Source of the DNA: Bifidobacteriaceae bacterium
GTDB lineage: Bacteria; Actinomycetota; Actinomycetes; Actinomycetales; WQXJ01
Direction of reading: 5' to 3'
Assembly: GCA_031267825.1 (NCBI GenBank)
Contig: JAIRYJ010000015.1
Coordinates: 9,487-73,486, forward strand
Length of the DNA: 64,000 bases
Both the position numbers and the translations under genes were made by a program. Positions 11,839 through 50,233 of this stretch are shown here, in pieces; within the stretch, counting starts at the first letter, position 1; every line of letters begins with the position of its first letter. The notes beneath the pieces are model-generated. The model searched no databases, was not told the DNA's origin, and saw only the letters and a program-made list of their open reading frames with translations.

Positions 11839-11959
11839 CTGAAGCGCAAAGTGTCCCACTCTAAGGATCTGGGACTGTTGGCGCCGGCCTTGGCCGGACT
11901 ACGCGTCTACGCTCTATTGCTGGAGTTCTGGGCGCTCCAGCTCAAGCGGCCGCCGTCAC

Positions 11960-12105
11960 GGAGGGTGTCAACAACACCTTCCAACCGTGTTGAGGCGGGC
12001 CAGTGCATAGTGCTGACCAGCGGAAACGCGGAAACCAGGCGTAGGCGCGGGACCTGCCAAGACAGTTTGGTGACCTAGGAGCCTGTTATCCGACGGGCCC
12101 ATAGG
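11960..12105. repeat. Dispersed modular palindromic element, degenerate copy (modules A, B, C)
   Basis: Module A is ggagggtgtcaacaacaccttcc. Module B (reverse-complemented) is ccgtgttga...accagcggaaacgcgg. Module C is cctaggagcctgttatccgacgggcccatagg. The same modules occur at 30848-31100, 47510-47612, 49973-50191 and 56385-56650. Confidence 0.75.
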
Positions 12106-12282: not shown

Positions 12283-14712
12283 ATGAACTTCACGTTATCC
12301 GCTGCCGAAACACCCGGCGGTGAAGCCAACTTGAGGCTGCCGGACATCGCCTCGGTCGTGGCCGGGCCTTTTTCTGGACGGGTTGTGCTGCTGATCGGTT
12401 TGGCTGTCTGCCTGGCAGGGCTCGGCTTTGGCGCCTGGACTTACCTCCGGCTGAAGGCCCTGCCAGCTCATCCTTCAATGCTGCGGGTCTCCGAACTGAT
12501 TTTCGCGACCTGCAAGACTTACCTGCTGCGCCAGGGACGGTTCCTCTTAGTCCTGTGGACCTTTATCGCCGCGGTCATCGTGGTCTACTACAAGCTGGCC
12601 GTCCAGTTCAGCTGGGGCCGGGTAGCCATCATCATCATGTTCTCGCTTGTCGGCATGGCCGGATCCTTCTCTGTCGCCTGGTTCGGCATCAGAGTCAACA
12701 CCTTCGCTAACTCGCGCACCGCCCATGCCGCTCTGTCTGGTAAACCTTGGCCAGTCCACGCCATACCGATGCGCTCCGGTATGGCGATCGGCATGGTGCT
12801 GATCTCCCTTGAACTGCTTTTGATGCTGGTCATCCTGCTTTTCCTACCCGGTGACATAGCTGGTTCGTGTTTCATTGGTTTCGCTGTCGGGGAATCACTC
12901 GGAGCCTCCGCCTTACGCATCGCTGGCGGGATTTTCACCAAGATCGCCGACATTGGCTCCGATCTGATGAAGATTGTTTTCAAGATTGATGAAGATGATC
13001 CACGCAACCCTGGCACCATCGCTGACTGCACTGGCGACAACGCCGGTGATTCAGTTGGCCCGTCAGCCGACGGCTTCGAAACTTACGGTGTCACAGGCGT
13101 GGCCCTGGTTACTTTCATCCTGTTAGGCGTACCACACCCTGAAACCCAGGCGATCCTCCTGGTCTGGATTTTCACTGTCCGGGCGGTCATGTTGATCGCC
13201 TCAGTGGTGAGCTACTTTGTCAACGAGTTCGCCGCTAAACGCATCCTGGCGGGCAAAGTTGATTTTGATTTTGAAACTCCGCTGACCTCACTGGTTTGGG
13301 TGACATCACTGGTGTCAATCAGTTTGACGTTCTTGACGACTCACTTCATGCTGCAAGATTTGGGAGGCGGACTGTGGTGGAAACTTGGTCTGATCATCTC
13401 CTTTGGCACTCTAGCTGGCGCCCTGATCCCTGAACTGGTCAAAGTTTTCACCTCGACCAAAGCCCGCCACACCCGCGAGGTGGTGACATCTTCACGTGAG
13501 GGTGGCGCCTCACTGAATATCCTGTCCGGTCTAATCGCGGGCAACTTTTCGGCTTACTGGCTGGGCATAGCGATCGTTGGGCTGATGGGCGGCGCCTATT
13601 TGATCTCAACCATGGATCTGGCTGAAGGACTGCTTGGCCTGCCGGCTAACAGCTCAATCCTGGCCACAGCGGCTCCTTCTGTTTTCGCTTTCGGTTTGGT
13701 CGCCTTCGGTTTTCTTGGCATGGGGCCAGTCACCATCGCGGTCGATTCTTACGGCCCTGTGACAGACAACGCCCAATCGGTTTTCGAGTTGTCCCAGATT
13801 GAGTCCGTCCCCCAGGTTGACCAAGACTTGGGATTCAGCCCGGCTTGGGGACCGGCCAAGCTGATGCTGGAGGAGAACGATGGCGCCGGTAATACTTTCA
13901 AGGCGACAGCCAAGCCGGTCTTGATCGGCACCGCTGTGGTGGGTGCGACAACCATGATTTTCTCGATCATCATGGCGTTGACCGACTCACTGTCAAGCGG
14001 CGTTGAGAAACTGTCGTTAGTTCATCCGCCTTTCCTGCTTGGGCTGATCCTTGGTGGCGCTGTCATCTACTGGTTCACTGGCGCCTCCGCCCAAGCGGTC
14101 ACAACCGGCGCTTACCGGGCTGTCGAGTACATCAAGTCTCACATTGACCTTGGCAGCAGCGCTGCCGCCTCAGAGAAGGATTCACGCCGAGTAGTTGAAA
14201 TCTGCACCCAGTACGCCCAGCAAGGCATGCTAACCATCTTCTTGGCGATCTTCTTCGCCACTTTGGCTTTCGCTTTTGTTGAGCCTTATCTGTTCATCGG
14301 TTACCTCATTTCGATCGCCTTGTTCGGTCTTTATCAGGCGATTTTCATGGCTAACGCGGGTGGCGCCTGGGACAACGCCAAGAAGATCGTTGAGGTCGAT
14401 TTGCACCAGAAGGGAACCGCTTTGCATGACGCCACCGTTATTGGTGACACTGTCGGTGACCCCTTCAAAGACACTTCTTCAGTGGCGCTGAATCCGGTGA
14501 TCAAGTTCACCACCCTGTTCGGTTTGCTGGCTGTGGAACTCGCCGCCATGCTGACCAGCCGCGGCTGGGGTTCTTTGGTGCATCTTCTAGCTGGCGTGCT
14601 ATTCCTGGCCAGCACCGTTTTTGTGTGGCGCAGCTTCTACGCCATGCGGATCAACTTGAAAGCTGATCCACTCTTAGCTGAAGCTGTGGCTGAAGCTGAC
14701 CTGCCATCCTGA
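12283..14712 (+). CDS. hppA: Membrane-bound proton-translocating pyrophosphatase
   Basis: An 809-aa polytopic protein with the motifs CTGDNAGDSVGPSADGFETY and GDTVGDPFKDTSS. A GGAGG Shine-Dalgarno sequence lies 6 nt upstream of the ATG. Confidence 0.93.
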   Translation: MNFTLSAAETPGGEANLRLPDIASVVAGPFSGRVVLLIGLAVCLAGLGFGAWTYLRLKALPAHPSMLRVSELIFATCKTYLLRQGRFLLVLWTFIAAVIVVYYKLAVQFSWGRVAIIIMFSLVGMAGSFSVAWFGIRVNTFANSRTAHAALSGKPWPVHAIPMRSGMAIGMVLISLELLLMLVILLFLPGDIAGSCFIGFAVGESLGASALRIAGGIFTKIADIGSDLMKIVFKIDEDDPRNPGTIADCTGDNAGDSVGPSADGFETYGVTGVALVTFILLGVPHPETQAILLVWIFTVRAVMLIASVVSYFVNEFAAKRILAGKVDFDFETPLTSLVWVTSLVSISLTFLTTHFMLQDLGGGLWWKLGLIISFGTLAGALIPELVKVFTSTKARHTREVVTSSREGGASLNILSGLIAGNFSAYWLGIAIVGLMGGAYLISTMDLAEGLLGLPANSSILATAAPSVFAFGLVAFGFLGMGPVTIAVDSYGPVTDNAQSVFELSQIESVPQVDQDLGFSPAWGPAKLMLEENDGAGNTFKATAKPVLIGTAVVGATTMIFSIIMALTDSLSSGVEKLSLVHPPFLLGLILGGAVIYWFTGASAQAVTTGAYRAVEYIKSHIDLGSSAAASEKDSRRVVEICTQYAQQGMLTIFLAIFFATLAFAFVEPYLFIGYLISIALFGLYQAIFMANAGGAWDNAKKIVEVDLHQKGTALHDATVIGDTVGDPFKDTSSVALNPVIKFTTLFGLLAVELAAMLTSRGWGSLVHLLAGVLFLASTVFVWRSFYAMRINLKADPLLAEAVAEADLPS

Positions 14713-24462: not shown

Positions 24463-26778
24463 ATGTCGAATCCAACACCGCCGTGGCAACCCGATCCGCC
24501 TGATCGCCCGGCAACACCTGACCCGCCCGGCTTCAGCGGCCAGCCTAGCTACCCGGCTGGTCAGCTTCCTCCGGTCCAAGGTTATGGGCCTGGCCAGCCA
24601 GCGCCGGATCCTTTCATTCCAAGCGGTCCGATGCCGTCCCCAGGGTCTTTCGCGCCCGGTCAGCCGGGCGGTGGTTGGGTGCCGTCAGCGCCCCCAGCGG
24701 CGCCGGTTTGGGGTTCAACTCCGGCAGAACCAGCGGCGCCGGTTTGGGGTTCAACTCCAGCGACGCCCGCCATGCCAGCGGCGCCGGCAGCGCCAACTTG
24801 GGACTCACTCGCTGGGCCACCCACCACCCAACCAGGCGGCCAGGGCGGCTACGGCTTTGGGCCGGTATCCCCCGGCGCCTCTTATGGGCCAGACTTCACG
24901 CCCAGCCCATCACCCGCTGGGCCACCCGCCACCCAACCAGGCGTCCAGAGCGGCTACAGCTTTGGGCCGGTATCCCCCGGCGCCTCTTACGGACCAAGCT
25001 TCGCCCCTGGCCTGAGCCAGCCCTCCAGCGGCGTGTTCCCCGGCGACCAAAGCGCATCACCAGATTGGCAGGCACCGCCCCCACCCCCGCCTGCTCCACT
25101 CAGCCCGGCCTCTCAGCCACCCAAGAAGCGTCGCGGTGCCTTGATCGCGGCCCTGGCCGCCGCGGCTCTGGTGGCAGCGGGCGGCGGCGCCTGGGCTTTC
25201 ATCGCGTTACGCGATGTCGGTGGCGCGGCCAGCCCCGAAGAGGCCGCTGAACTACTCCTAAACGACGCCGTGAAGCTCAATTCGGTCAAAATCACCAGTC
25301 GTCTGGCGCCATCGGAAAGAGCCATCGGCGAATCATGGCGTGACCTTATACAAGTCTTTGTTGACCCGTCAGACAACCCCAATCCTGAGGCCAGCAAGGC
25401 CAGGCAAGACCTAGTCGGGGCGTTAACAATCGAGTTGAGCGGCATCAAGTTCGCCAGTCAGCCCTTGGCGACTGGTGTGTCACGCACCGCCCTGGCCGAG
25501 GGCAGTGTCCGGATCGACGCCAACGTCGACCAACTGACTGACGCCATACTGGACCTGACCAATGAATACGGTGACTCTCTTGTCGGCGGCGATGCCGGTT
25601 CCTTGCTCGGCTTCGACCCGTCCAGCATGACCCGCTCAGAGTTGAGGGACTCACTCGACGAGTTGCTGCCGATACAAAAAGACATCAGTGACCTGGCAAG
25701 ATCAGCCGAAATCGATGACTTGTTCGTTGTTACGGTCGAAGAGGGCGCCAAGTGGTATACGTCAGTCACAATGACGGCCGCGCAGTACATCTATGAGGCC
25801 AGCGGACCGCACGCCGAACCACTCGGTGATGTCATTCCGGCGGACCAGATGAAGGGCGCCGATCGGCCGGAAGACGCCGCCAGCAACCTGCTGGCCGCCA
25901 TTGACGCGGCCGCCGCCAGTAGTGACTTGCGTGAACTGGCCAGGGCCCTACCGCTGGCCGAATCCCGGCTGCTGGCCGTTTATGGCCCAGCTTTGAGCAG
26001 CGATTTGGCCATCGGTGACGTCTTCAACGCTTTCTCGATCACCAGTTTGACCACCTCTGAGGCTGGGTCGGGGGACGGTTACTCGCGTCAGGCGATAGAC
26101 ACCTTGGGGCTCGAAATGAACCAAGGCGACCAACTGTCAATCAACCGTGACGGCACATCATGGGATGCCCTCTATTCGTCGATTGACAGCGGAGCCAAGG
26201 TTAAGCTGTCCCAGCCAGACCGGCAGACCCTAGATCTCTCGATCGGCCCTGATGACGCGTCCAGCTTTGAATCCACCATGTCTGTCTCAGTCAAGATTCC
26301 AAGCAAAGGCGTCTTGGAAGTGGAGATTTGGGCAGAAGGTGAACAGTATTCCTTCAACTATCCAGACGATTGTTCAGGCACAGGTGATCGAGTCACGGTG
26401 AACCCGGTCTGCGGCCCCGATTCCGGATTTGACCCGTCTGAACTCGGTTTGGATGAACTGTCGGATCTGCCAGACTTGCGCGACCTGATCTCGTTGACAG
26501 CCTTGAAAGAGTCAGACGAAAAGTGGTACATCTCGCTCTTGGCCAGCCCAACTGCCATCGTGGCGTTGGGCGCTGTGGTGGTCGTCTCCGCCTTGTCTAG
26601 TTTCTCGACCTACGGCGGCGGCTTCGCGGATGATTTCCTCGGATCTGATGATTACAGCGATGACTGGAGCGATGACTCCCCTTGGGGTGATGAGTTCGGT
26701 GATGACTGGAGCGAAGACTTCCCTTGGGGTGATGAGTTCGGTGATGACTGGGATGACGATCAAGCCAGTCAAACCTAA
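24463..26778 (+). CDS. Hypothetical two-TM membrane protein with Pro-rich repeat N-terminus and acidic Trp/Asp repeat tail
   Basis: The start was moved to ATG 24463, which has a GGAGG 7 nt upstream. About 230 aa of Pro-rich repeats are followed by a TM segment (LIAALAAAALVAAGGGAWAFIAL), about 440 aa of unassigned domain, a second TM segment near the C-terminus, and the tail DDWSDDSPWGDEFGDDWSEDFPWGDEFGDDWDDD. Confidence 0.7.
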   Translation: MSNPTPPWQPDPPDRPATPDPPGFSGQPSYPAGQLPPVQGYGPGQPAPDPFIPSGPMPSPGSFAPGQPGGGWVPSAPPAAPVWGSTPAEPAAPVWGSTPATPAMPAAPAAPTWDSLAGPPTTQPGGQGGYGFGPVSPGASYGPDFTPSPSPAGPPATQPGVQSGYSFGPVSPGASYGPSFAPGLSQPSSGVFPGDQSASPDWQAPPPPPPAPLSPASQPPKKRRGALIAALAAAALVAAGGGAWAFIALRDVGGAASPEEAAELLLNDAVKLNSVKITSRLAPSERAIGESWRDLIQVFVDPSDNPNPEASKARQDLVGALTIELSGIKFASQPLATGVSRTALAEGSVRIDANVDQLTDAILDLTNEYGDSLVGGDAGSLLGFDPSSMTRSELRDSLDELLPIQKDISDLARSAEIDDLFVVTVEEGAKWYTSVTMTAAQYIYEASGPHAEPLGDVIPADQMKGADRPEDAASNLLAAIDAAAASSDLRELARALPLAESRLLAVYGPALSSDLAIGDVFNAFSITSLTTSEAGSGDGYSRQAIDTLGLEMNQGDQLSINRDGTSWDALYSSIDSGAKVKLSQPDRQTLDLSIGPDDASSFESTMSVSVKIPSKGVLEVEIWAEGEQYSFNYPDDCSGTGDRVTVNPVCGPDSGFDPSELGLDELSDLPDLRDLISLTALKESDEKWYISLLASPTAIVALGAVVVVSALSSFSTYGGGFADDFLGSDDYSDDWSDDSPWGDEFGDDWSEDFPWGDEFGDDWDDDQASQT

Positions 26779-26864: not shown

Positions 26865-29288
26865 GTGAATAAGCTGATCGGCGCGCTGCGCGACGATTTG
26901 GAGCGGGCGCACCGGATCACACATATCGAGGTCACTCCAGCCCGGGTCGGCAGGCATCAAGCCTGGCCCGATTGGGTGCCGGATTGGATCCGGGATGGCT
27001 ATGGTGTCTTGGGCGTGACCTCGCCTTGGGCTCATCAAGTTGAAGCCATGGAGGCGGCCCGCCAAGGGCACACCGTAATCGCCACAGCGACCGGCTCAGG
27101 TAAGTCCTTGGCACTTTGGACCCCGCTCTTGACCGCTTTGAGCGAACCGTTGGCTTTGGGGCGGATCAGCGCCATCCGGACCCGGCCTTCAGCCCTCTAT
27201 TTGGCGCCCTCGAAAGCTCTGGCGGCTGATCAGATGAACGGCCTGCAAGCCCTTTTCAAGGCTGCTCAGCTTGACGGCATCTACGCCGCGACCTGCGACG
27301 GTGATACTCCGGCCGCCAGCCGCGGCTTCATCCAGTCACATGTTGATCTACTGGCAAGCAACCCGGACTTCTTGCATTTTTCGCTTCTACCTGGACACGC
27401 CAAATGGTCTGGCTACTTGCGCGGTTTGCGTTATGTCGTGGTCGATGAGCTGCATGCTTACCGTGGCGTGATGGGGGCGCACGTCGCCTGGGTGATGCGC
27501 CGCCTGCGACGTGTGGCGCGGCACTATGGCGCCGATCCGGTTTTCTTGGCGGCCTCGGCCACGGTCAGCCAACCGGCCGTTAGCTTGGCCCGTTTGATTG
27601 GCGCTGAGCCTGACACTGTCCGTCAGGTTTGCCACGACAGTGCGGCCCACGGTGAACACAGCCTCGTGTTGTGGCGCCCGGCAGCGGTCGACCGGTCGGC
27701 TTCGGTCCCAAACGGCTTGGCCCCCAAGGACGATGCCGCCCAGCGACTTCCGCACAGCGGCGACTTGGGTGCACCAGTTGACCGGACGGCTTCGGGTGGG
27801 CCTGACAATGCCCCCGGTGGGGCAATTCGCCGCTCAGCCTCTTTAGAGGCGGCTCGGCTGTTGGCCGATTTAGCTGAAATTGGTGCCCGCTCCGTTACCT
27901 TTGTCCGTTCGCGCTATTCGGCTGAAGCTGTGGCTGATCAAGCCCGTGACCTGCTTGGCGCCGCTGTCAAGTCACGGGTGGCGACTTACCGGGGCGGCTA
28001 CCTGCCAGAGGAACGCCGCGAACTTGAACGGCGTCTACGTAACGGGTCGCTGCTGGCTGTGGTGTCGACATCGGCCCTGGAACTCGGCATCGACCTGCCA
28101 AACCTGGATGCTGTACTGATCGCGGGCTGGCCTGGCACGCTGATCGCGCTGCGGCAACAGGCCGGACGGGCGGGCCGAGCCGCCGGGGATGGTTTAGCTG
28201 TTTGGATCGCTGGCAACGACCCGCTAGACACCTACATCGCGGCCCACCCGGAGACCGTGGTGGACGCACCTCTTGAGGCGACGGTTTTTGATCCTTCCAA
28301 TCCTTACGTCATGGCACCGCATCTGGCCGCCGCCACCGCCGAATTACCGCTATCTGATGATGAAGCCACACGGCTCGGCCCGGACGTACTGGATGTGCTT
28401 GAATCGCTGGCTGAAAGTGGCGCGCTGCGCCGCCGTAGCGGACGCTGGTTCTGGGTCTTACCGGAACGGGCGACCGATCTGACCGATCTGCGGGGATCGG
28501 GTGGGACTCTAATCCAGCTAGCCGAACAGTCCACCGGCCGAATCTTGGGCACAGTTGATTCTGGCCGGGCACCGGCTGTGGCCCACCCCGGCGCGGTCTA
28601 CCTGCATCAGGGCGAGTCTTTTCTGGTCACCGGGCTTGACTTGAAAGGTGGTCTGGCCTTGCTTGAGGCCGCCGAACCGCATTACCGCACAATGCCGCTA
28701 TCCCAAACGCGAGTCGCTGTCATCGCTGAGTCCGCCAAGCAGGAGACAGCTGGGCCGGTCTGGCACTTTGGGACAGTCGATGTGACCAGCCAGGTAGTGG
28801 GGTACATGAGGCTGCGTCTGCCCGGCTTGGAACGGATCGGTTCTGTCCCGCTGGATTTACCCGAATCGACCCTGCGTACGGCCGCGACTTGGGTGACCGT
28901 GCCTCAGGCGACTCTCAGCCAAGCCGGGTTGACGACGGAGGAAGTTCCTGGCGCCCTGCACGCCGCCGAGCATGCCGCCATCGGATTGCTGCCGTTGCTG
29001 GCCACCTGCGACCGTTGGGACTTGGGCGGTCTGTCAACCGCCATCCACCAGGACACCGGCCAAGCCACGATCTTCATTCATGACGCGGTCCCGGGTGGTG
29101 CTGGATTCGCTGAACGTGGCTTTCAGATGCGGGCCAACCTGTTCAAAGCGGTCCGTGAACTGCTGCTGGCTTGTCCTTGTGAAGCTGGTTGCCCTTCTTG
29201 TATCCAGTCCCCGAAGTGCGGTAACGCTAATCAGGTGCTGTCCAAGGCTGGCGCCTTGGCGCTGGTCACAGCACTGGTCGCGGCATGA
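26865..29288 (+). CDS. DEAD/DEAH-box helicase with C-terminal MrfA/DUF1998 zinc module (SftH / Rv3649-like)
   Basis: Walker A ATGSGKSL, DExH box VVVDELH and the C-terminal motif CPCEAGCPSCIQSPKCGN. Confidence 0.88.
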   Translation: MNKLIGALRDDLERAHRITHIEVTPARVGRHQAWPDWVPDWIRDGYGVLGVTSPWAHQVEAMEAARQGHTVIATATGSGKSLALWTPLLTALSEPLALGRISAIRTRPSALYLAPSKALAADQMNGLQALFKAAQLDGIYAATCDGDTPAASRGFIQSHVDLLASNPDFLHFSLLPGHAKWSGYLRGLRYVVVDELHAYRGVMGAHVAWVMRRLRRVARHYGADPVFLAASATVSQPAVSLARLIGAEPDTVRQVCHDSAAHGEHSLVLWRPAAVDRSASVPNGLAPKDDAAQRLPHSGDLGAPVDRTASGGPDNAPGGAIRRSASLEAARLLADLAEIGARSVTFVRSRYSAEAVADQARDLLGAAVKSRVATYRGGYLPEERRELERRLRNGSLLAVVSTSALELGIDLPNLDAVLIAGWPGTLIALRQQAGRAGRAAGDGLAVWIAGNDPLDTYIAAHPETVVDAPLEATVFDPSNPYVMAPHLAAATAELPLSDDEATRLGPDVLDVLESLAESGALRRRSGRWFWVLPERATDLTDLRGSGGTLIQLAEQSTGRILGTVDSGRAPAVAHPGAVYLHQGESFLVTGLDLKGGLALLEAAEPHYRTMPLSQTRVAVIAESAKQETAGPVWHFGTVDVTSQVVGYMRLRLPGLERIGSVPLDLPESTLRTAATWVTVPQATLSQAGLTTEEVPGALHAAEHAAIGLLPLLATCDRWDLGGLSTAIHQDTGQATIFIHDAVPGGAGFAERGFQMRANLFKAVRELLLACPCEAGCPSCIQSPKCGNANQVLSKAGALALVTALVAA

Positions 29289-29354: not shown

Positions 29355-29732
29355 TCAAGGCGGACCAGCCAAAGCTGTCGCCACCGCCCGGCGAGTCCCG
29401 ACCGGTCCCAAACGCGCCACAACCGCGCTACTAACGCGCACCGAATCTGACCCCTCCAACTGGCAGGCCGTCAGTTCCGCTGCCATTGCCGCTGCCACCT
29501 GCCCGGCCGCTTCACAAGCCTGGTTCAGATCTTGCCCGTCGATCAACCCCTGAGCGGCCGCCAAGGCCGCCAGATCGGCCGCACTGGCCGCTTGATAACT
29601 GGCCGTCACCGACTGGCTCACCATTGCCAACGCCGCCAGCAGGCTGGCCAGAACCGCAACCAAAGCGATCACCAAAACTGTTCCCGATCCGCCATCGCGG
29701 TCCGTCTTAGCTGAGGCTGTTTCAAGGACCAT
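29355..29732 (-). CDS. Rv3654c-family TadE-like pilus assembly protein
   Basis: The start was moved to ATG 29732 (MVLETASAK..), an 11-nt overlap with the upstream gene. It contains GGSGTVLVIALVAVLASLLAALAMV followed by an Ala-rich region. It is the last gene of the Tad-like operon. Confidence 0.6.
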   Translation of the reverse strand: MVLETASAKTDRDGGSGTVLVIALVAVLASLLAALAMVSQSVTASYQAASAADLAALAAAQGLIDGQDLNQACEAAGQVAAAMAAELTACQLEGSDSVRVSSAVVARLGPVGTRRAVATALAGPP

Positions 29733-30084
29733 AACCACAGGCCCGCTCAGGTTCGCAGATCGCCGCCGCTTGGGAGCTAACCTGTCGTGTACCGGCCAGC
29801 GGGATCCAGACGGCGGTTTGGCAGCGTACCCAAACCAGGCCACCGGACCGTTCAAGGCTGACTGTGACTGGCCTGCCAGCCGCGGCCTCGGCGGCCGCGG
29901 TGACTTCAGCATCAGGTTGGCCAAGGGCGGCCGCCCGGGCGCCAGCCCGGGCCGCATCCGCCAGTTGGAGCTGGCCGACCGCCGCCGAACTAAGGGCCAC
30001 TAGCAGCGCGATCAAGCCGAGCACGGCTGGTAAGGCCATCGCTAGTTCGACTGTCACCGATCCTCGGTCCGGCGGTTGATCCAT
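29722..30084 (-). CDS. TadE-like protein (Rv3655c-like)
   Basis: The N-terminus DRGSVTVELAMALPAVLGLIALLV is typical of TadE/pseudopilin-like proteins. Its position in the Tad locus supports the call. Confidence 0.65.
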   Translation of the reverse strand: MDQPPDRGSVTVELAMALPAVLGLIALLVALSSAAVGQLQLADAARAGARAAALGQPDAEVTAAAEAAAGRPVTVSLERSGGLVWVRCQTAVWIPLAGTRQVSSQAAAICEPERACGYGP

Positions 30085-30320
30085 CAGTTGAGCGCCCTCT
30101 GCACAATGTCCAGCAGCCAGCCGCGCACAGCATCTGACTGCAGTATCGCCAGCAGCAAGCCGGCGAAGCCGGCCGCGGTCAGAATGGCTATGGCGTATTC
30201 GGCGGTAATACCACCAGCCTCGCGGTAGTCCGGTATGTCCGCCTGTGGCCGGCGGCCGACGGCTTCGATTTGGGCCAGCCGCTCCTTAAGAGAACCGGCC
30301 AGAGTTGTAACTGTTCGCAT
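30084..30320 (-). CDS. DUF4244-type Flp-like small membrane protein (Rv3656c-like)
   Basis: GGITAEYAIAILTAAGFAGLLLAIL is a hallmark of the actinobacterial Flp-like/DUF4244 family. The ATG at 30320 is preferred over the longer track ORF. Confidence 0.65.
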   Translation of the reverse strand: MRTVTTLAGSLKERLAQIEAVGRRPQADIPDYREAGGITAEYAIAILTAAGFAGLLLAILQSDAVRGWLLDIVQRALN

Positions 30321-30584
30321 TGCTGCACCTTTCTGTGGGCTGATTAGCGGGATCCCAGCTTGTTCCAATCAGCCTTCCGGCAGCCGCCAGAAACAAAAGG
30401 GCTGTGGGCGCTGCCCACCTGACAGCCCAAGAACGGCTTGGAAGAAGGGCGCTGCCCAGGCCGAGCCCGGCGGACAGAGCTAGTAGGCCTGGTTGACAAC
30501 GCTCAACTGGCGCTGCCCAGGCCGAGCCCTGCGGACAGCGTTAACCATTGCGACGGCCGCGCCACCATCAGGCGTGGCTCCGCC

Positions 30585-31904
30585 TCACATCACCTGAACC
30601 AGACTTCCAGCCAAAGACAACATGATTGGCACCAAACCCAAGGCGACGAAGGCGGGCAGGTAACAAAGGCCAAGCGGAGCCATCAGATAGACGCCAAGGC
30701 GGGCCGCGGCTTGTGACAAGCGGCGCCGCTCAGCCCGGCCAAACCTGGCGGCGACAGCTTCTAACAGCGGGCCAGCTTCGACTCCGGCGCTCCAAACTAG
30801 CCACAAAGTGGACCGCAACGCCTCAATGACGGCCTCCTGACCGCTTCTAGGTGGGTGTTGGATAACACCCACCGGCCGTGTTGACGCAGTGTGAGCGGAG
30901 CTCTCACCAGCGGAAACGCGGCGAAAAGGCGCTGGGGGACCGCCTAGGAGACTGTTGTCGGACAGTCTCCTAGGTGGGTGTTGGATAACACCCTTCGCGG
31001 CCCAAGTTGACGCAGTGTGAGCGGAGCTCTCACCAGCGGAAACGCGGCGATAAGGCGCTGGGGGACCGCCTAGGAGACTGTTGTCCGACAGTCTCCTAGG
31101 CGGGTTCTGGTCCGCCCGGCCGGTCACAGTGTGATCCGGCCAGCCTTCATCCCAGACCTGGTCCCAAGGTTGGCCTCGCGTCAAACCAGCTCCAACCGCC
31201 GCTAGACGCCCACCAATCCACCCACCCCAAGCTTGTCCGGTTCGCAGCAAAGCGTCCGGCAAAGCCAAGCCCGCTCGTAAGGCCGCCGCCAGGACAGCCG
31301 CCACCAGCGCGGCCGTACCAGCCGGACGGCTGGCGGACCGCACCAGGGCCGAACTCCAGACCTGGCCTAACAGCATCAGTCCAACCCCTACCCCCAGTGC
31401 GATGCTTCCAAGACCACCTCCCAGCAGTATCGGGACAGGCTGGGCACCCATCGCCGTACCTAGAAGCAGGCCCAGTAGCGGCAGGAAGCGCAGCAGGCGG
31501 GCACTGGACTTAGGCCCGGCTATGGCCGCTTCCCGGGCGTCATCGGTCTCTTGAGCCTGATCAACCGCTTTGACCACGGCGTCAAGCAGGTCAGCCGTTG
31601 AGGCTCCAACGGATTGGGCGATGCGCTGAATCGCGGCGACCGCCGCGGCATGCGGCCCGGTCGGCGTATCTTTCAGGCTCGCGGCCCAGGTGTCCAAGTC
31701 ATAACCCGTCTGGCCAAGCAGCGGCCGCCAAACTTCAGGTCCGCTCAGGCCCGCCCGGGCCAACGCTGTCACCTGAGACAGGGCCTCCGATAAGGCGTCA
31801 AGATCAGATTCGGGGTGACGGTCAGCGGCGGGCCCACGCCGTGGCCGACGGGTTTTGGGGTTTATCCAGCTAGATGGCGGCCCGGCCGGGCCTGGGCTCA
31901 ACAC
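30585..31904 (-). CDS. Type II secretion system F family protein, fused TadB/TadC-like, carrying an in-frame repeat-element insertion
   Basis: A 439-aa ORF with TM-rich TadB-like and TadC-like halves. It lies between the TadA ATPase and the Flp-like gene, where Rv3657c/Rv3658c sit in M. tuberculosis. Codons encoded by 30848-31100 derive from the dispersed repeat. Confidence 0.7.
   Translation of the reverse strand: MLSPGPAGPPSSWINPKTRRPRRGPAADRHPESDLDALSEALSQVTALARAGLSGPEVWRPLLGQTGYDLDTWAASLKDTPTGPHAAAVAAIQRIAQSVGASTADLLDAVVKAVDQAQETDDAREAAIAGPKSSARLLRFLPLLGLLLGTAMGAQPVPILLGGGLGSIALGVGVGLMLLGQVWSSALVRSASRPAGTAALVAAVLAAALRAGLALPDALLRTGQAWGGWIGGRLAAVGAGLTRGQPWDQVWDEGWPDHTVTGRADQNPPRRLSDNSLLGGPPAPYRRVSAGESSAHTASTWAAKGVIQHPPRRLSDNSLLGGPPAPFRRVSAGESSAHTASTRPVGVIQHPPRSGQEAVIEALRSTLWLVWSAGVEAGPLLEAVAARFGRAERRRLSQAAARLGVYLMAPLGLCYLPAFVALGLVPIMLSLAGSLVQVM
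30848..31100. repeat. Two tandem units (123 + 126 nt) of the dispersed modular palindromic element, located inside a CDS
   Basis: The element-boundary TAGG recurs at 30848, 30971 and 31097. The unit contains taggtgggtgttggataacaccc (A), ttgacgcagtgtgagcggagctctcaccagcggaaacgcgg (B) and cctaggagactgttgtcggacagtctcctagg (C). Confidence 0.9.
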
Positions 31905-32947
31905 CGGGCGAGCCTGTGGTTGAACAACTCCCAGCCTGGCCCGCGGCGAGCTTCACCAGCCCTGAAGTTGACCGCTGGTGTGGCGACCAGTTCACTGCCA
32001 GAAAGTCCCAGAATCGCGATCGACTGGACTATCCGCTGACCGCCTGGCTGGCGTACCAAGTGCACCACACCGGACAAGGCCGCGGCGGCTTGGACCGCCA
32101 CTGTCCTTGAACCCATGTCAGCTAACGAGCCGAGAGCGGTCAGGCGGGCCGGTACATCATGGCAGGAATTGGCGTGAATCGTAGCGGCTGAGCCGTCATG
32201 GCCAGTGTTCAGCGCTGTCAGAACCTCCCGCACCTCCGGACCACGGCACTCACCTAAAACAATCCGGTCGGGCCGCATACGTAACGACTCACGCACCAGA
32301 TCAGTCAACCCAACCAGGCCACGTCCCTCAGCGTTGGCGCCACGCGCCTCAAGGCGGACACAGTGTGGATGTGACGTGATGATTTCCTGGGCTTCTTCAA
32401 TCACCACCAGCCGTTCTGAGGCGGGCACTTCAGAAACCAAGGCGGAAAGCAGAGTTGTTTTGCCAACCCCAGTGCCGCCTGAGATCAGGAAATTAGCCCG
32501 CGCGGCCACCAACGCCCGTAACAGTTCCACCCCGGGTTGACCAACCATGCCGCTGGTCTCCAAGTCTCTCAACGACATACCCTCACGCCGGAAAACCCGG
32601 AAAGATATCAGCGGCCCGGCCGGTGCCACCGGTGGCACAACCGCGTGCATCCGCACCCCACCTGGCAGGCGGGCATCGACCGTTGGTGAAGCGTCATCCA
32701 ACCGCCGTCCCGCCTGAGCCGCCAGACGCTGCGCTAAAGCCCGGATGGCGGCCGCATCACCAAGATGTAAAGCGAGGCGCCGCATACCGCCAGCGCCGTC
32801 AACCCAGACCGCATCAGGGCCGTTGACCAGCACATCTGTTACACCAGGATCCGTTAGTAAAGCGTTCAACGCCGCCGGGGCGGCCAATCCGCTCACCACT
32901 CCTCCGCGAAAGCCGCCGGATTGAAGCCAGGCGCTGGCGCCCGCCAA
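31898..32947 (-). CDS. tadA: TadA/CpaF-family secretion ATPase (Rv3659c-like)
   Basis: Walker A GGTGVGKTT, Walker B-like VVIEEAQE and the His-box region GHDGSAATIHAN. Confidence 0.88.
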   Translation of the reverse strand: MAGASAWLQSGGFRGGVVSGLAAPAALNALLTDPGVTDVLVNGPDAVWVDGAGGMRRLALHLGDAAAIRALAQRLAAQAGRRLDDASPTVDARLPGGVRMHAVVPPVAPAGPLISFRVFRREGMSLRDLETSGMVGQPGVELLRALVAARANFLISGGTGVGKTTLLSALVSEVPASERLVVIEEAQEIITSHPHCVRLEARGANAEGRGLVGLTDLVRESLRMRPDRIVLGECRGPEVREVLTALNTGHDGSAATIHANSCHDVPARLTALGSLADMGSRTVAVQAAAALSGVVHLVRQPGGQRIVQSIAILGLSGSELVATPAVNFRAGEARRGPGWELFNHRLARC

Positions 32948-34068
32948 CGCGGCCGTGTTGGCCGGCGCCAGCCGTTCGAGTGCCGTCTGGTCGGTTCACC
33001 AACCGGCCAGGCCGGATCGGCCGCGACCGGCGCTTCCTCGGATGGTTTCCCAGTCGGCCGGTCAAGCAGGCCGACCAAGGTTCCAGCTGCCGCCGCCAAG
33101 GGGCCCGCAGGCCGGTCACCAGGGCTCAGCCCGTGCGTTAAACCAGCCACTAGCTGGCGTTCCGCACCAATCCGAACCACGTCATAACGGTCCAACATCT
33201 GGCCAACCTGCCAGGCGCGCAACCCGCCGCGAACCTCCCTAACCGCCATGTGGCATGGCACTCCAAGCGGTCTCAACTCATCTAGCAGAGCCTCCGCGGC
33301 GGCTAAACCGGCCGGCTCACCGCGTAACACGATCACTACCGCTTCAGCCCACGAAGCGATCCGCCAACCGCCGAGCGGTGCCGTGTTGGCGGCATCGAAC
33401 ACTGTGTAGCGGGCCGGGCTCTGCTCCTCCCAAGCCTCGATCGTCTGGCGGACCTGCCACGGCGTGACGCCCTCTTCTGGACCGGCTGGGCTCAGCACCT
33501 CAATCCCGGCGACCTGTTTGATCGCCAGCGGGCTTTCAGTTGAGGCCGCGGCCGCCGCCCAGCTTGAACCACCAGCCAAACCAAGCAAAGCCCCAACTGG
33601 GGCGCCGGCCTGATTCAGGGCAGCCAACCGGGCCCCACCTGAGCGTGCCATCCGCCGTGCCAGCGCGACGGCCAGGCAACTTGTTCCAGCGCCACCATGC
33701 GCCCCGATCAACGCCACCCGGCGGCAGCGGCGCGGCGGTGCCTCAATCGCCTCAACTTGGGCCGTCAAGTCACGCCAGGCGCCCGGCAGCACAATTCCTC
33801 CGCCGGCGGCGGCGGTTCCAGCTTCACCAACAGCCACCTCAGTCACCCGGCAGGACGGCCAAACGCCGTGCACCGCCAACGGCACTTCACGGCCAACGTC
33901 ATGTCCACAAACCAGCATCCTGGGTGTGATTTGGAGAGCATCAAGCTGTTCTGGCCCGTTGATGTGCTGGACGCTGGCTCCGGCCTGCCAAATTGACCAT
34001 TTGGCCAACGCGGCCAGATCTGGATCTTTGGTCACTAGGACAACTGGCAGCTGATTCGGCACCGTCAC
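32893..34068 (-). CDS. TadZ/CpaE-like, septum site-determining (Ssd, Rv3660c-like) protein
   Basis: It has a degenerate deviant Walker A (GAHGGAGTS) in a ParA/MinD-like fold. It lies upstream of tadA as in the M. tuberculosis locus. Confidence 0.65.
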   Translation of the reverse strand: MTVPNQLPVVLVTKDPDLAALAKWSIWQAGASVQHINGPEQLDALQITPRMLVCGHDVGREVPLAVHGVWPSCRVTEVAVGEAGTAAAGGGIVLPGAWRDLTAQVEAIEAPPRRCRRVALIGAHGGAGTSCLAVALARRMARSGGARLAALNQAGAPVGALLGLAGGSSWAAAAASTESPLAIKQVAGIEVLSPAGPEEGVTPWQVRQTIEAWEEQSPARYTVFDAANTAPLGGWRIASWAEAVVIVLRGEPAGLAAAEALLDELRPLGVPCHMAVREVRGGLRAWQVGQMLDRYDVVRIGAERQLVAGLTHGLSPGDRPAGPLAAAAGTLVGLLDRPTGKPSEEAPVAADPAWPVGEPTRRHSNGWRRPTRPRWRAPAPGFNPAAFAEEW

Positions 34069-44313: not shown

Positions 44314-45621
44314 ATGACGATCCGTCCCGGAGACCAACAGCAAAGCGCGGCTGAACTGAGCCAGTCGTGGCAGACCGACCCGCGCTGGGCTGACGCCGAA
44401 CGCACCTATACGGCGGCTGACGTGATCGCCTTACGCGGCTCCTTCCAGGAGGATCACACCTTAGCCCGGCGCGGCGCGGAACGGCTCTGGGAATTGCTCC
44501 ATGTGGAACCTTACGTCCACGCTCTTGGCGCCCTGACCGGCAATATGGCCGTCCAGCAGGTCAAGGCCGGGCTCAAAGCGATCTACTTGTCGGGCTGGCA
44601 GGTCGCGGCGGACGCCAACCTGTCCGGCCAGACCTATCCTGACCAGTCGCTCTATCCGGCTAACTCAGTGCCGGCGATTGTCCGCCGGATCAACAACGCG
44701 CTGGAACGGGCTGATCAAGTCGAGTTCATTGAGACCGGCCGGGCGGTGCGTGACTGGTTCGCGCCAATAGTGGCTGACGCCGAGGCCGGATTCGGCGGCG
44801 AACTGAACGCCTACGAGCTGATGAAAGCCATGATCGAGGCTGGTGCGGCCGGAGTCCACTGGGAAGATCAACTAGCTTCAGCCAAGAAATGCGGCCATAT
44901 GGGCGGGAAGGTTCTGATCCCGACCGGGCAACATATCCGCACCCTGAACGCTGCCCGCCTAGCGGCCGATGTGGCTGGCGTGCCGTCAGTCCTGATCGCC
45001 CGGACCGATTCGCTTGGCGCGGACCTGATCACATCTGACATCGACCAGCGTGACCAGCCGTTCCTGACGGGTGAACGAACAGCTGAAGGTTTTTATCGCA
45101 CCCGGCCCGGCCTGGAGGCTGTCATTGCCCGGGGCAAGGCTTACGCGCCTTACGCTGATCTGCTTTGGGTTGAAACAGCCACACCAGATCTGGACCTGGC
45201 CCGGCGGTTCGCTGAAGCGATTCACGCTGTTTACCCTGGCAAGTTCTTGGCCTACAACTGTTCGCCGTCTTTCAACTGGCGAGCCAAGCTGGATGACGCC
45301 ACGATCGCTAAGTTCCAGCGCGAACTCGGTGCCATGGGTTACAAGTTCCAGTTCATCACCTTGGCTGGTTTCCACGCCTTGAACTATTCGATGTTTGATT
45401 TAGCTGACGGCTACCGTGATCGCGGTATGAGCGCCTACGTGGAACTCCAGACCAAGGAGTTCGAGGCTGAATCGCGTGGTTACAGCGCGACCCGTCACCA
45501 GCGTGAGGTCGGCACTGGGTATTTCGACAAGATCGCCACAACGCTCAATCCGCGAGCCGCCACCACCGCCCTGAGCGGATCAACTGAGGCCGCCCAGTTC
45601 TACGCCGCCACCAGCCGGTGA
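44314..45621 (+). CDS. aceA: Isocitrate lyase
   Basis: 435 aa with the signature [11 protein letters not shown]. Confidence 0.96.
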
Positions 45622-45627
45622 TGACCC

Positions 45628-45717
45628 AGGGTGATTGCACAGGTGATTGCCCAGGGTGATAGCCCGGGGTAATAGCCCGGGGTGATAGCCCGGGGTGATA
45701 GCCCGGGTGAATGCCCA
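45628..45717. repeat. About 7 tandem copies of a 12-13-nt unit (GGGTGATAGCCCG)
   Basis: The repeat starts 7 nt after the aceA stop and ends about 48 nt before the preferred aceB start. Confidence 0.85.
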
Positions 45718-45764
45718 ATCAGACGCGCCGAACCACCAAACCAGATCAGGAGATATCCACTGCC

Positions 45765-47426
45765 ATGACCACTCAAGCCACCACCGCCCGCGGCCAGATC
45801 CGAATCAAAGGCGCCCTGGGCAAGCGTTACAGCGAAATCCTGACACCAGGTGCGATGGACTTCTTGACGGCCTTACATGAGAACTTCGCTTACCGCCGTC
45901 TTGAACTACTTGAGCGCCGCCAAAGCTTCCAGAACGCCATCGACGGCGGCGCCATGCCGCAGTTCTTGCGTGAAACTGAGGCGATCAGGTCAGACCCGGC
46001 CTGGCAGGTCGCCTCACTGGCCCCAGGCCTGACCGACCGGCGGGTTGAGATCACCGGGCCAACCGATCCTAAGATGACGATCAACGCCTTGAATTCTGGA
46101 GCTAAGGTCTGGTTAGCGGATTTTGAGGACGCCCTCAGCCCAACTTGGCCTAACGTCATTGAAGGCCAGCTCTCATTGAAGGACGCCATCCGGGGACGCC
46201 TTGAGTTCACCAGCCCTGAAGGCAAGCATTACGCCGTCAAATCAGGTGACATCAAGGACCTGCCAACTATTGTGGTCCGTCCCAGAGGCTGGCACCTGCT
46301 AGAGAAACACTTGCGCTACTTCGCCCCTTCTGGTTTCTCTCAGTCTGTGCCAGGGGCGCTAGTGGACTTCGGCTTGTATTTCTTCCACAACGCCATTGAA
46401 CTGATCAGCCGCGGCCGGGGACCTTACTTCTATCTGCCGAAACTCCAATCCCATAAGGAGGCCCGGCTGTGGAATGACATTTTCAACTGGGCGCAGGACC
46501 GTCTTGGCGTTCCAGTCGGCACAATCCGTGCGACAGTGCTGATCGAGACGCTGCCAGCGGCTTTCGAGATGGATGAGATTCTCTACGAGTTGCGCTCCCA
46601 TTCGTCTGGCCTTAACGCCGGGCGCTGGGATTACATGTTCTCCATCATCAAGACACTGCGCCACAAAGGTAAGGCCTATGTTCTGCCGGATCGGGCTCAG
46701 ATCACCATGACTCAGCCGTTCATGCGGGCTTACACCGAACTGTTGGTCAAGACCTGTCACCGCCGCGGCGCCTCCGCCATAGGCGGGATGAGCGCGTTCA
46801 TTCCGAACCGGCGCGACCCAGAGGTCACCGCTGAAGCCTTCCGGCAGGTGCGGGCCGATAAGTTGCGCGAGGCCCAGGACGGTTTTGATGGCACATGGGT
46901 GGCACACCCTGACCTGATAACGGTGGCCCAAGAAGAGTTCGACAACGTCTTGGGTGAAAGCCCTAATCAGATCTCCCGGCAGCGCCCGGATGTGACAGTC
47001 AGCCAAGGCGACCTGCTAGACATTGACGCCGCCCGGCGGGCGGGCGCTAGCGTCACGTCCGGCGGTTTGCGGACCAACATTTCAGTTGGTATCCGCTACT
47101 TGGAGAACTGGTTACGTGGCAATGGCGCCGCCGCGATCGACAACCTGATGGAGGACGTCGCGACAGCTGAGATTTCACGTTCCCAGGTTTGGCAGTGGAT
47201 CGCCGCTGGCGCTTCGACGGCCTCGGGAGCTGTTATCACCCGGGACCGGGTGGCGGCCTTGATCCGGGAAATCGCCGACGATTTGGAGAAGTTCCCGGGC
47301 AACAAGTACCTCCAGGCGACGGACGCTTTCAAGGCGCTGACCTTAGGTGATGATTTCCCGGCGTTCTTGACGATCGGGGCTTACAGTTCCTATCTGATCG
47401 GGTCAGATGCCGATCAGCCCGCCTGA
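45765..47426 (+). CDS. aceB: Malate synthase A
   Basis: The start was moved to ATG 45765 (MTTQATTARG..), which parallels the E. coli AceB N-terminus MTEQATTT. It contains DRRVEITGP and SGLNAGRWDYMFS. The track start at 45711 lies in the tandem repeat. Confidence 0.93.
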   Translation: MTTQATTARGQIRIKGALGKRYSEILTPGAMDFLTALHENFAYRRLELLERRQSFQNAIDGGAMPQFLRETEAIRSDPAWQVASLAPGLTDRRVEITGPTDPKMTINALNSGAKVWLADFEDALSPTWPNVIEGQLSLKDAIRGRLEFTSPEGKHYAVKSGDIKDLPTIVVRPRGWHLLEKHLRYFAPSGFSQSVPGALVDFGLYFFHNAIELISRGRGPYFYLPKLQSHKEARLWNDIFNWAQDRLGVPVGTIRATVLIETLPAAFEMDEILYELRSHSSGLNAGRWDYMFSIIKTLRHKGKAYVLPDRAQITMTQPFMRAYTELLVKTCHRRGASAIGGMSAFIPNRRDPEVTAEAFRQVRADKLREAQDGFDGTWVAHPDLITVAQEEFDNVLGESPNQISRQRPDVTVSQGDLLDIDAARRAGASVTSGGLRTNISVGIRYLENWLRGNGAAAIDNLMEDVATAEISRSQVWQWIAAGASTASGAVITRDRVAALIREIADDLEKFPGNKYLQATDAFKALTLGDDFPAFLTIGAYSSYLIGSDADQPA

Positions 47427-47582
47427 TCGTTACCCGCCTGATCCTAGCCCTAACCCGGGCCCTGACCCGGGCCCTGACACGCCAACCGGTTGCTGCTGAA
47501 AAGCTGTCTCCGACTGTGTCGCACGCGGTGAGAGCGAAGCTGTCACCAGCGAAGACGCGGCAGGCGAGCATAGTGCTGTGCC

Positions 47583-47610
47583 TGGGTCCGTGGTGAAAAC
47601 CACGGACCCA
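47583..47610 (+). terminator. 12-bp hairpin with GAAA loop (TGGGTCCGTGGT-gaaa-ACCACGGACCCA), terminator-like and without a U-tract
   Basis: It lies about 155 nt downstream of aceB. Related CCGTGGT..ACCACGG hairpins occur at 12197-12216 and 35366-35382. Confidence 0.35.
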
Positions 47611-47695
47611 GCTTTAGCCATACAATCTTCTGACACAAACAACGCCCGCAGGCCGCGCCGGCCACCGGGCCCGATCAACAAGCTGGAGCTAGCAG

Positions 47696-48715
47696 GTGAC
47701 AATGAAGCCGCGGCGCGGCCGCGCGGTCACGCTTAACCAGGTGGCCCGCACCGCTGGGGTTTCGTTGGCGACCGCTTCGCGGGCCTTGAACGGTGGCATC
47801 GCCTCACCAAGAGCCATCGCTGCGGTCAACCGGGCTGTCGCCCAGCTAGGGTTTGTGCCGAACCGGGCGGCCCGCACTTTGGCTCGCCAGAAAACTGACG
47901 CGATTGCCCTGGTCATCCCGGAAGACCCGGCTTTCTTGTTTTACGACCCGTTCCTGACCCGGGCGACCCACGCCATCGCGGCCGAGTTTTGGCGAGCCAA
48001 CTTGCAACCGTTGCTGCTTTTGATGGATCCCGCCGAACCGCTCACCAATGTGGCTCACTTCCTCCATTCCGGCAACGTTGACGGCCTTGTTGTGGCGTCG
48101 TTTCATGACAATCCGGCAATGGAACACAAGCTTGAAGAGACTGGTTTGCCGGTTGTTTTTGTTGGCCGGGCACCATCTGGTGAGAACTTCCCGTGGGTTG
48201 ACGTTGACGGTGTCCAGGGTGGCTACTTGGCGACTAAACACATGCTTGAGCACGGCCGGCGGCACATCGCGATGGTTGGCGGTCCGGCCTCAATGAACGC
48301 CACAGCCGACCGTCAAGCTGGTTTCTTGAAAGCCCACCAAGAGGCTGGTGTTGAACCCGGACCGGCCTTAACTGAGGTGTTTGACCAGGCTTGGGGTGCG
48401 CGCGCGGCGACTTTACTGGTGGAGCGCTACCCCGCCTTGGATGGAGTTTTCGCCCAGTCGGATCCAATCGCGGCGGGTTTGTTGCAGGGTTTGCGTCAGG
48501 CCGGTCGGAGGGTGCCCGATGACGTCGCAGTGGTTGGGTTCGACGATTTTGAAACAGCCACCTCGGTTTTCCCGCACTTGACCACTGTTCGTAATCCGGT
48601 GGCTGAACTGTCACGGGCCGCCGCCGCGTTGCTGATCGGTTACCTGGAACAGGGTAAATGGAGTGACTGGCCAGTCATTTTGCCGGCCGAACTGGTGATC
48701 CGTCAATCCGCCTGA
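47696..48715 (+). CDS. LacI family transcriptional regulator
   Basis: N-terminal HTH VTLNQVARTAGVSLATASRALNG and a periplasmic-binding-protein-like effector domain. Confidence 0.9.
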   Translation: MTMKPRRGRAVTLNQVARTAGVSLATASRALNGGIASPRAIAAVNRAVAQLGFVPNRAARTLARQKTDAIALVIPEDPAFLFYDPFLTRATHAIAAEFWRANLQPLLLLMDPAEPLTNVAHFLHSGNVDGLVVASFHDNPAMEHKLEETGLPVVFVGRAPSGENFPWVDVDGVQGGYLATKHMLEHGRRHIAMVGGPASMNATADRQAGFLKAHQEAGVEPGPALTEVFDQAWGARAATLLVERYPALDGVFAQSDPIAAGLLQGLRQAGRRVPDDVAVVGFDDFETATSVFPHLTTVRNPVAELSRAAAALLIGYLEQGKWSDWPVILPAELVIRQSA

Positions 48716-48886
48716 CGGTTCAACCAGAACCGTCGCGGGGCGGATGGTCTGTTGCTGGGGGATTGGGTGCGGTTAGCTGACCCGCGGTTTGACTGTTGAC
48801 CTGGGTGGTGCGGGCTGGCCGCGCCAAGGAACCGACCAACCTCAATGCCCAACACCAGCCCGGCTGGGCGTGGGAGAATTCGGTTT

Positions 48887-49972: not shown

Positions 49973-50191
49973 CTAGGAGGGTGTCGCACAACACCCTTCG
50001 CGGCCCGCGTTTCCGTGGGTCAGCCCAGCGCTGACCCACGGAAACGCGGGAATCGGGTGTCGGCTGTGGACCTAGGGACCTGTTATCCGACAGGCTCCCA
50101 GAACCGTGGTCAAAGCCTCCGCTCTAGACAGTTCCACATCCTTTACCAGCCGCGTTTTCGCTGGTGAGAGCTTAGCTCTTGGCGCGTCAAC
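49973..50191. repeat. Dispersed modular palindromic element cluster (A, perfect 19-bp hairpin variant of B, C, B)
   Basis: Module A is at 49973-50000. A perfect hairpin at 50006-50048 reads cgcgtttccgtgggtcagc-ccagc-gctgacccacggaaacgcg. Module C is at 50071-50100. A B-like module is at 50150-50191. Confidence 0.85.
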
Positions 50192-50233
50192 TTTGGCTGC
50201 GAAGGTTACTAGCGCACTTTAGTTAGGAAACTC

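Follow-up and report, generated by a model that had tools for sequence, protein, structure and literature searches.

A tandem pair of three-hairpin repeat units within the reading frame of a tadB/C-type gene in a Bifidobacteriaceae bacterium

The window analyzed here, a 64,000-nucleotide (nt) stretch of a contig from the metagenome-assembled genome (MAG) of a Bifidobacteriaceae bacterium, carries a gene for a 439-amino-acid (aa) T2SSF-family platform protein of the TadB/TadC type whose reading frame runs through a tandem block of two palindromic repeat units (coordinates without a locus label are window positions throughout). We consider it very probable that this block is a dimer of a noncoding, structure-constrained dispersed repeat that entered the tadB/C-type gene by insertion, or expanded inside it, and is tolerated there. 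The block belongs to a genuine multicopy dispersed element that is mostly intergenic and present in both orientations, and it is best read as a selfish repeat akin to MITEs, REPs, or BOX elements, which would be tolerated in a permissive cytoplasmic loop by analogy with the Rickettsia palindromic elements (RPE).

Tandem Repeats Finder reports an array at 30847 to 31105 with a period of 126 nt, 2.1 copies, 93% matches, and a score of 449, and the CTAGG motif begins at positions 30847, 30970, and 31096, which delimits units of 123 and 126 nt that sum to 249 nt; array and motif spacing thus bear out a preliminary description of this DNA, which had placed a 249-nt block of 123- and 126-nt units inside a 439-aa open reading frame (ORF). 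Unit 1 (30847 to 30969, plus strand; nhmmer, 91.1 bits; covariance model [CM], 82.8 bits) consists, in order, of CTAGG, hairpin A, hairpin B, a spacer, and hairpin C, folds as DNA at −44.7 kcal/mol (z = −8.4), and lies antisense to the host gene because the element-forward orientation is the plus strand. Unit 2 (30970 to 31095, plus strand), recovered by Tandem Repeats Finder, by nhmmer, and as family D8 of the repeat finder, differs from unit 1 at ~7% of positions and by a 3-nt indel, and its A-B junction is the variant CCCTTCGCGGCCC, common to the copy at 49973 and not to unit 1. A terminal CTAGG (31096 to 31100, plus strand) closes hairpin C of unit 2, neighboring units having one CTAGG in common, and the whole block folds at −140 kcal/mol (z = −9.3 against shuffles). 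The reverse complement of 30847 to 30921 matches 56462 to 56536 at 72 of 75 positions (96%; BLAST and repeat finder), the same count that had been given for the match to the 56462 to 56537 region.

The host ORF (30585 to 31904, minus strand) stays open across the block, which it translates twice, as had been described, in the form PRRLSDNSLLGGPPAP(Y/F)RRVSAGESSAHTAST...GVIQHPP, and the predicted translation of the insert includes the peptide RVSAGESSAHTASTR. Both units are open in one of the six frames, a reverse frame, and the host gene uses exactly that one. The preliminary description had the CCTAGG motif read as CCT-AGG in the host frame; this is true of one of the two hairpin C sites, the other being read as C-CTA-GG. 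It had also placed the repeat peptide in a plus-strand ORF at 56451 to 56696, in which RVSAGESSAHTASTRPEGVVQHPPRS is indeed present. The insert does not have the codon-position GC signature of the gene: its third-position value is 0.54 versus 0.66 (0.67, 0.67, and 0.54 at positions 1, 2, and 3 versus 0.73, 0.58, and 0.66 in the gene).

We aligned the host protein with 13 orthologs (31 to 60% identity; listed lengths of 286 to 396 aa), and the 83-aa segment is absent from every one of the 13. The insert corresponds to codons 269 to 352 of the host gene and lies between the conserved W251 region and a conserved LR..L..VW.SG.EAGPLLE block, in a loop whose length varies among the orthologs, while the host protein retains all 40 columns that are invariant over the 14 aligned sequences, with no frameshift and no stop. 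AlphaFold2 (AF2), run on the same 14-sequence alignment, gave an all-helical and mostly confident model (mean pLDDT of 76.6, and ~85 to 96 outside the insert) in which residues 259 to 343 have a pLDDT below 50 and no secondary structure, the sole long stretch of this kind, flanked by confident helices at 247 to 253 and 355 to 373. Alignment and model therefore agree with the earlier claim that about 83 residues had been added to a loop of the platform protein. The insert peptide is hydrophilic, with much Pro, Ser, Ala, Arg, and Gly, and a full HMMER search against 1.84 billion representative proteins returned one weak match (E = 1.5e-4), an 89-aa ORF (P0035) that itself resembles a translated tandem of the element; a word-index protein search with the 84-aa insert peptide returned no matches, which is a weak negative because even the self-match was not returned. 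Since the disordered stretch, the composition and codon-position GC, and the HMMER result agree, we conclude that the 83-aa segment is not a conserved protein module. The element profile did not detect the element in the gene at three orthologous, syntenic tad loci of relatives (L112 to L114). The orthologs P0009 (L112:10001-11191) and P0003 (L113:10001-11089) have inserts of their own of ~20 to 60 aa, Gly/Ala/Arg-rich, in the corresponding loop; a derivation of these inserts from the element was considered and rejected, the element profile having no match inside those genes. The loop appears to be a general hotspot of length change.

Within the window the element occupies five loci with seven or eight units in total and is intragenic only in tadB/C; the other four loci lie between long ORFs, in line with the earlier claim that its modules are also found in intergenic DNA. 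These are a copy with a longer B-C spacer at 11957 to 12100 (plus strand; nhmmer, 58.3 bits; CM, 47.1 bits), between ORFs 8886-11603 (minus strand) and 12283-14712 (plus strand); a degenerate copy at 47485 to 47611 (plus strand; CM, 47.3 bits), between ORFs 45711-47426 and 47696-48715; a locus at 49973 to 50207, between ORFs 48845-49966 and 50234-51403, composed of a copy whose hairpin B is a long perfect palindrome (49973 to 50102, plus strand; nhmmer and CM) and an adjoining partial inverted copy (50107 to 50207, minus strand; nhmmer, 42.1 bits; not recovered by the CM); and a cluster at 56384 to 56650 (nhmmer and CM), between ORFs 55344-56327 and 56649-59366 (both minus strand). This cluster contains an extra hairpin C (56384 to 56414), a full reverse unit (56409 to 56536), which of all copies is most closely related to unit 1, and a degenerate unit in forward orientation (56510 to 56639). 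A filters-off CM scan of the window found nothing convincing outside the five loci.

Related copies were collected by scanning one genome per species, a collection that does not include the window's own genome, for an exact 19-mer from hairpin B, which gave 111 loci. Thirty-three of these come from five Bifidobacteriaceae MAGs (Nc350_bin167, Pcl387_bin30, bin33, bin36, and Cd354_bin95), whose accession prefixes are JAISXH, JAITJY, JAITJZ, JAITKC, and JAIROU in no stated order; the remainder are single matches in unrelated, mostly high-G+C genomes and look like chance matches because the element profile does not extend them. An nhmmer profile identified 49 distinct copies in the window and the related loci, and at E ≤ 1e-6 the CM returned 50 matches over 352 kb, including a few that overlap on opposite strands; because the related loci were picked by an exact 19-mer, copy counts, proportions, the intragenic fraction, and the conservation of the 19-mer motif are all biased. 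Outside the window there are ~45 further copies, in at least five related Bifidobacteriaceae MAGs, so the search for additional copies of the unit that the preliminary description had proposed as a check yielded about 50 in the window and the related MAGs, mostly intergenic. Their common layout is (C)TAGG, hairpin A, CCGRCCGTG(TTGAC or CCCGC)GC, hairpin B, ACCAGCGGAAACGCGG, a spacer of ~20 nt, CCTAGG, hairpin C, and CCTAG(G), with a period of 122 to 126 nt. A scan of the whole window at Rfam gathering thresholds gave no matches, and an E-value scan of 30700 to 31250 gave hairpin noise against miRNA models only; by these scans the element is not a described RNA family. We found no account of such elements in Bifidobacteriaceae in the literature, and together with the lack of an Rfam match this indicates that the family appears to be undescribed.

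Comparison of the copies indicates that the structure of the element is under constraint. Each hairpin folds in nearly all copies while the stem sequences vary between subfamilies. When 19 copies were aligned by plain MAFFT, 94.6% of cells paired and both partners had changed in 12 of 40 base pairs; none of 500 shuffles reached the observed pairing, and slid controls paired at 28 to 44%. The CM-fitted alignment of the 50 matches has 25 of 40 pairs with changes in both partners, among them all 13 of hairpin C. In the outer stem of hairpin B, a U-G wobble at CM alignment columns 63 and 152 is kept in 41 of the 50 matches on the element-forward strand, and the same columns read on the opposite strand would be an A-C mismatch, which hints at possible selection for structure in a single strand, either RNA or single-stranded DNA. 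Because the 40 base pairs covary strongly, the element is a clean case for distinguishing selection on a DNA hairpin (a transposition substrate) from selection on an RNA hairpin.

Among the related loci, two genuine genes contain in-frame copies. A deoxyribose-phosphate aldolase (DeoC) gene in MAG Cd354_bin95 (L007:2394-3344, minus strand) has a full unit in frame (element at 2881 to 3007), which encodes 41 aa; alignment to the aldolase structure 3ng3 pairs query residues 3 to 49 with chain residues 9 to 55 and query residues 95 to 255 with chain residues 63 to 226, leaving ~38 extra residues exactly at the element position. All three CTAG sites of this unit are mutated, to CCAGG or CCTGGG, and four of its six frames are open. 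An ABC transporter gene (ABC_membrane plus ABC_tran) in MAG Nc350_bin167 (L001:4587-6821, minus strand) has an A+B half unit in frame (element at 5514 to 5608), which encodes 27 aa and falls between the membrane and ATPase domains, in a linker that is unusually long and of low complexity. Both of these copies are read in the forward frame, and 19 of the 33 full-length copies are open in that frame. A peptide profile of that frame matched only two hypothetical ORFs of 65 to 67 aa in Bifidobacteriaceae MAGs, and it is insensitive, because the known DeoC and ABC transporter cases were not recovered. Long ORFs spanning copies at eight other loci (L107, L106, L045, L055, L026, L050, L082, and L024) were rejected as real genes and judged to be spurious high-GC ORFs because they are Arg/Pro-rich and without a Pfam match. 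There are thus three gene events among roughly 47 insertion loci in this biased sample.

The host gene is identified by a PF00482 match (35.1 bits versus a cutoff of 25.2) over residues 35 to 147, in the N-terminal half only; the second half is recognizable just through ortholog conservation and the helical model. The protein is 100% identical to the hypothetical protein LBJ62_05425 of a Bifidobacteriaceae MAG at NCBI, and Foldseek comparison of the model to the Protein Data Bank gave weak matches to PilC and EpsF (probability of ~0.7). The AF2 model contains two helical bundles parted by hydrophobic helices, with a long hydrophobic helix at the end, and in it the two halves are arranged like a fused TadB/TadC or like GspF/PilC. 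The bundles are expected on the same side of the membrane because two hydrophobic helices lie between them, and by analogy with GspF and PilC that side would be the cytoplasm. The surrounding ORFs carry T2SSE, DUF4244, TadE, and Tad domains: directly upstream in the operon is a TadA/CpaF-type secretion ATPase (31898 to 32947, minus strand; T2SSE, 1.1e-51), and downstream are a small Flp-pilin-like DUF4244 protein (30084 to 30368, minus strand; PF14029, 2.5e-18), a TadE-like pseudopilin gene (29722 to 30084, minus strand; PF07811, 2.7e-07), and a Tad/TadG-like gene with a Pfam Tad domain. This gene order is repeated in L112, L113, and L114. From 29355 to 34068 the window holds a seemingly complete tad-like cluster, with a possible CpaE-like gene, TadA, T2SSF, DUF4244, TadE, and a TadG-like gene.

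This context bears on the strongest of the alternatives, in which the insertion is tolerated because the gene or the whole locus had already ceased to function, the open frame being a coincidence. A 2025 study of termite-associated Bifidobacteriaceae reported that the genera studied do not encode tight-adherence pili (PMC11707648), which implies that loss of such loci occurs in the group, and very stable mRNA hairpins could hamper expression of the gene; nevertheless, the neighboring tad genes are all intact ORFs with Pfam matches, synteny is kept in three relatives, and the host protein itself shows the complete set of invariant columns, an uninterrupted frame, and a confident fold outside the insert, so we regard decay as improbable. 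Slightly less probable still is an assembly artifact, in which a short-read metagenome assembler threaded the repeat or its dimer into a gene that in reality has no insert or a single unit. In favor of an artifact, the sequence derives from a MAG, short-read assembly typically has trouble with dispersed repeats of 125 nt, and the flank has no independent assembly in the metagenome collection that we scanned. Against this, both flanks are continuous tadB/C coding sequence in one frame, the divergence and the 3-nt indel between the units are inconsistent with a collapsed or duplicated read path, an artifact would have only a ~1-in-18 chance of combining a length of 3n with placement in the single open frame, and in-frame copies are present in independently assembled MAGs as well. 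The least probable alternative is that the 83-aa segment has been exapted as a functional disordered linker or interaction module, or that its RNA hairpins regulate the operon: the indel between the units keeps the frame, the family also gives peptides to DeoC and the ABC transporter, and the element structure is constrained, but that constraint falls on nucleotide hairpins common to the intergenic copies and not on the peptide, which is found in no other protein in database searches and in no ortholog and is predicted to be disordered and featureless.

The reading of the block as a tolerated dimer of a dispersed repeat has several points against it. The 19-mer sampling biases the estimates of copy number and of the intragenic share; the sequence derives from one MAG, and the scan of metagenome contigs with the gene flank beside the insert gave no matches and hence no independent assembly. 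No contigs encoding the 439-aa protein are on record, and a metagenome scan with a two-anchor element pattern, which fits 16 known element loci, also gave no matches. A near-identical empty-site allele, which would define a target-site duplication and the exact boundaries, was not found among the tad loci of relatives or in the flank scan. No transposase was linked to the element, in genomes that were not searched exhaustively. The longer protein is predicted from the ORF, and if mRNA hairpins as stable as −140 kcal/mol impair expression, as they could, the insertion would not be neutral.

If the block is such a dimer, its ~125-nt three-hairpin units, bounded by CTAGG and CCTAG, would have entered or grown within a loop of the second helical domain that is predicted to be surface-exposed and is probably cytoplasmic. 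The insertion would have survived because this exposed loop is variable in length, the net 249 nt are a multiple of three, and the frame used is the sole one without stops; under these conditions the predicted product is a full-length platform protein with an 83-residue, probably disordered segment, and the insertion would be selectively neutral or nearly so. The element itself may spread by a transposition-like process directed at its own CTAGG end, and such a process would produce tandem arrays with one shared CTAGG. The dimer is not a simple recent in situ duplication, because unit 2 has the CCCTTCGCGGCCC variant of the 49973 copy and unit 1 does not. Adjoining units share a single CTAGG in the tadB/C block and likewise in L082 and L037, and the modules of the 56384 cluster meet at CCTAGG; judged from these junctions, the sharing suggests insertion or recombination at the CTAGG end of the element. 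The L082 locus (L082:189-438, MAG Pcl387_bin30) is a further tandem dimer with one CTAGG in common, and the ORF that spans it has no Pfam match. In tadB/C the span from the first to the last CTAGG is 254 nt, and if no other indels are assumed, the preserved frame implies a net gain of 249 nt (a 5-nt CTAGG overlap) or 252 nt (a 2-nt TA overlap); the same frame arithmetic excludes a 4-nt duplication.

As for the ends of the element, copies have CTAGG at the left and CCTAG(G) at the right, with weak terminal inverted repeats: the left 26 nt match the reverse complement of the right 26 nt at a mean of 16.6 of 26 positions, versus 13.5 for shuffles, the common part being CTAGG and the loop GAAYAAC. 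No parent insertion sequence (IS) or transposase with matching ends was found; the single IS seen, in genomes that were not searched exhaustively, was in L114, and its DDE_Tnp_1 (IS5-type) transposase gene was rejected as a parent because it lacks CTAG and matching inverted repeats and is not hit by the element profile. The idea that CTAG is rare and concentrated in the elements was likewise dropped, with 150 occurrences observed versus 151.5 expected in the window and 15 of them inside elements. A more speculative proposal, which we hold to be possible and rather doubtful, is that a CTAGG-tagged three-hairpin mobile family with its structure under selection is still active in gut-associated Bifidobacteriaceae, is mobilized through its hairpins by a putative transposase, and has repeatedly seeded peptide segments in housekeeping and envelope proteins. 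If this were true, the family would be an actinobacterial counterpart of the Rickettsia palindromic elements and would lend itself to experiments on the origin of protein sequence from selfish DNA.

In-frame insertion of small repeats has been documented for RPE, ERIC, BOX/RUP, the Bordetella BRE, the Coxiella QMITE, and intragenic REPs (PMC10969869, PMC3184786, PMC3733652). RPE, described by Ogata et al. in 2000 as summarized in later work (PMC10969869, PMC3184786), are dispersed palindromes that are both intergenic and inserted in frame in unrelated genes, and their in-frame insertion into genomic ORFs is unusually frequent (PMC10969869). The element described here resembles them in being a palindromic dispersed repeat in the ~100- to 150-nt range that is found between genes and in frame in unrelated protein genes, here as a 122- to 126-nt three-hairpin unit in tadB/C, DeoC, and the ABC transporter, and in adding peptide segments that the host fold can accommodate. 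It differs in its hosts (Actinomycetota, namely gut-type Bifidobacteriaceae MAGs, as opposed to obligate intracellular Alphaproteobacteria), in a minority intragenic share (the 3 of ~47 loci of the biased sample), and in its defined three-hairpin architecture with CTAGG tags. We therefore liken it to RPE by architecture and behavior, as an analog and not a member, since the host is not a Rickettsia; the comparison that the preliminary description had drawn is apt in this sense and is strengthened by the DeoC and ABC transporter insertions.

Other families provide partial parallels. Like pneumococcal BOX elements and Escherichia coli BIMEs, the element is a composite of distinct hairpin modules (A-B-C) that recombine and form arrays and inverted clusters, and occasional BOX/RUP copies are intragenic or fused to ORFs (PMC3184786); unlike them, it has an unrelated sequence and host, a fixed module order, and a tightly conserved unit length of ~122 to 126 nt. 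With the RAYT-mobilized REP/REPIN sequences (PMC3733652) it shares G+C-rich imperfect palindromes, a short conserved tag at the foot of the stem, and stems maintained by compensatory change, and intragenic REPs are known. However, its tag is CTAGG/CCTAG and not the GTAG or CGTC by which REPs are defined (PMC3733652), and it comprises three hairpins over ~125 nt as opposed to a single hairpin of 20 to 40 nt. Bacterial MITEs (for example, Correia/NEMIS, ERIC, and Coxiella QMITE) are similarly small, noncoding, and multicopy, occur in both orientations, can fuse in frame with host ORFs, and form stable RNA hairpins. MITEs are defined by terminal inverted repeats of ~15 to 30 bp, a target-site duplication flanking each copy, and a parent IS; in the present element the inverted repeats are weak, and neither a target-site duplication nor a parent IS was established.

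The event in tadB/C is real and of a familiar kind, in a new bacterial lineage, and because the phenomenon itself is well documented, it extends existing knowledge and does not overturn it. In-frame colonization of genes by small structured repeats is not limited to Rickettsia, a few Proteobacteria, and Firmicutes; high-G+C gut Actinomycetota show it as well, with three independent gene events in at least three genomes. Such inserts lengthen proteins, split domain matches, and may mislead annotation, as in the host protein, of which Pfam sees only the N-terminal T2SSF domain.

Several other repeats in the window are separate observations. A 105-nt tandem repeat at 24805 to 25012 (1.8 copies, 87 to 91% identity) is unrelated to the element, and three copies of a 42-nt (14-codon) tandem repeat at 26629 to 26754 lie just upstream of or overlap the start of a DEAD/MZB helicase ORF (26865 to 29288). 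At 45617 to 45712, ~7.4 copies of a 13-nt repeat (GGTGATAGCCCAG-like) stand directly upstream of ORF 45711-47426, and at 52487 to 52556 a 35-nt sequence is directly duplicated without mismatch (100% identity, 2.1 copies). Three diverged 99-nt (33-codon) repeats at 5005 to 5285, with 64 to 72% identity, probably represent a repeated protein motif.

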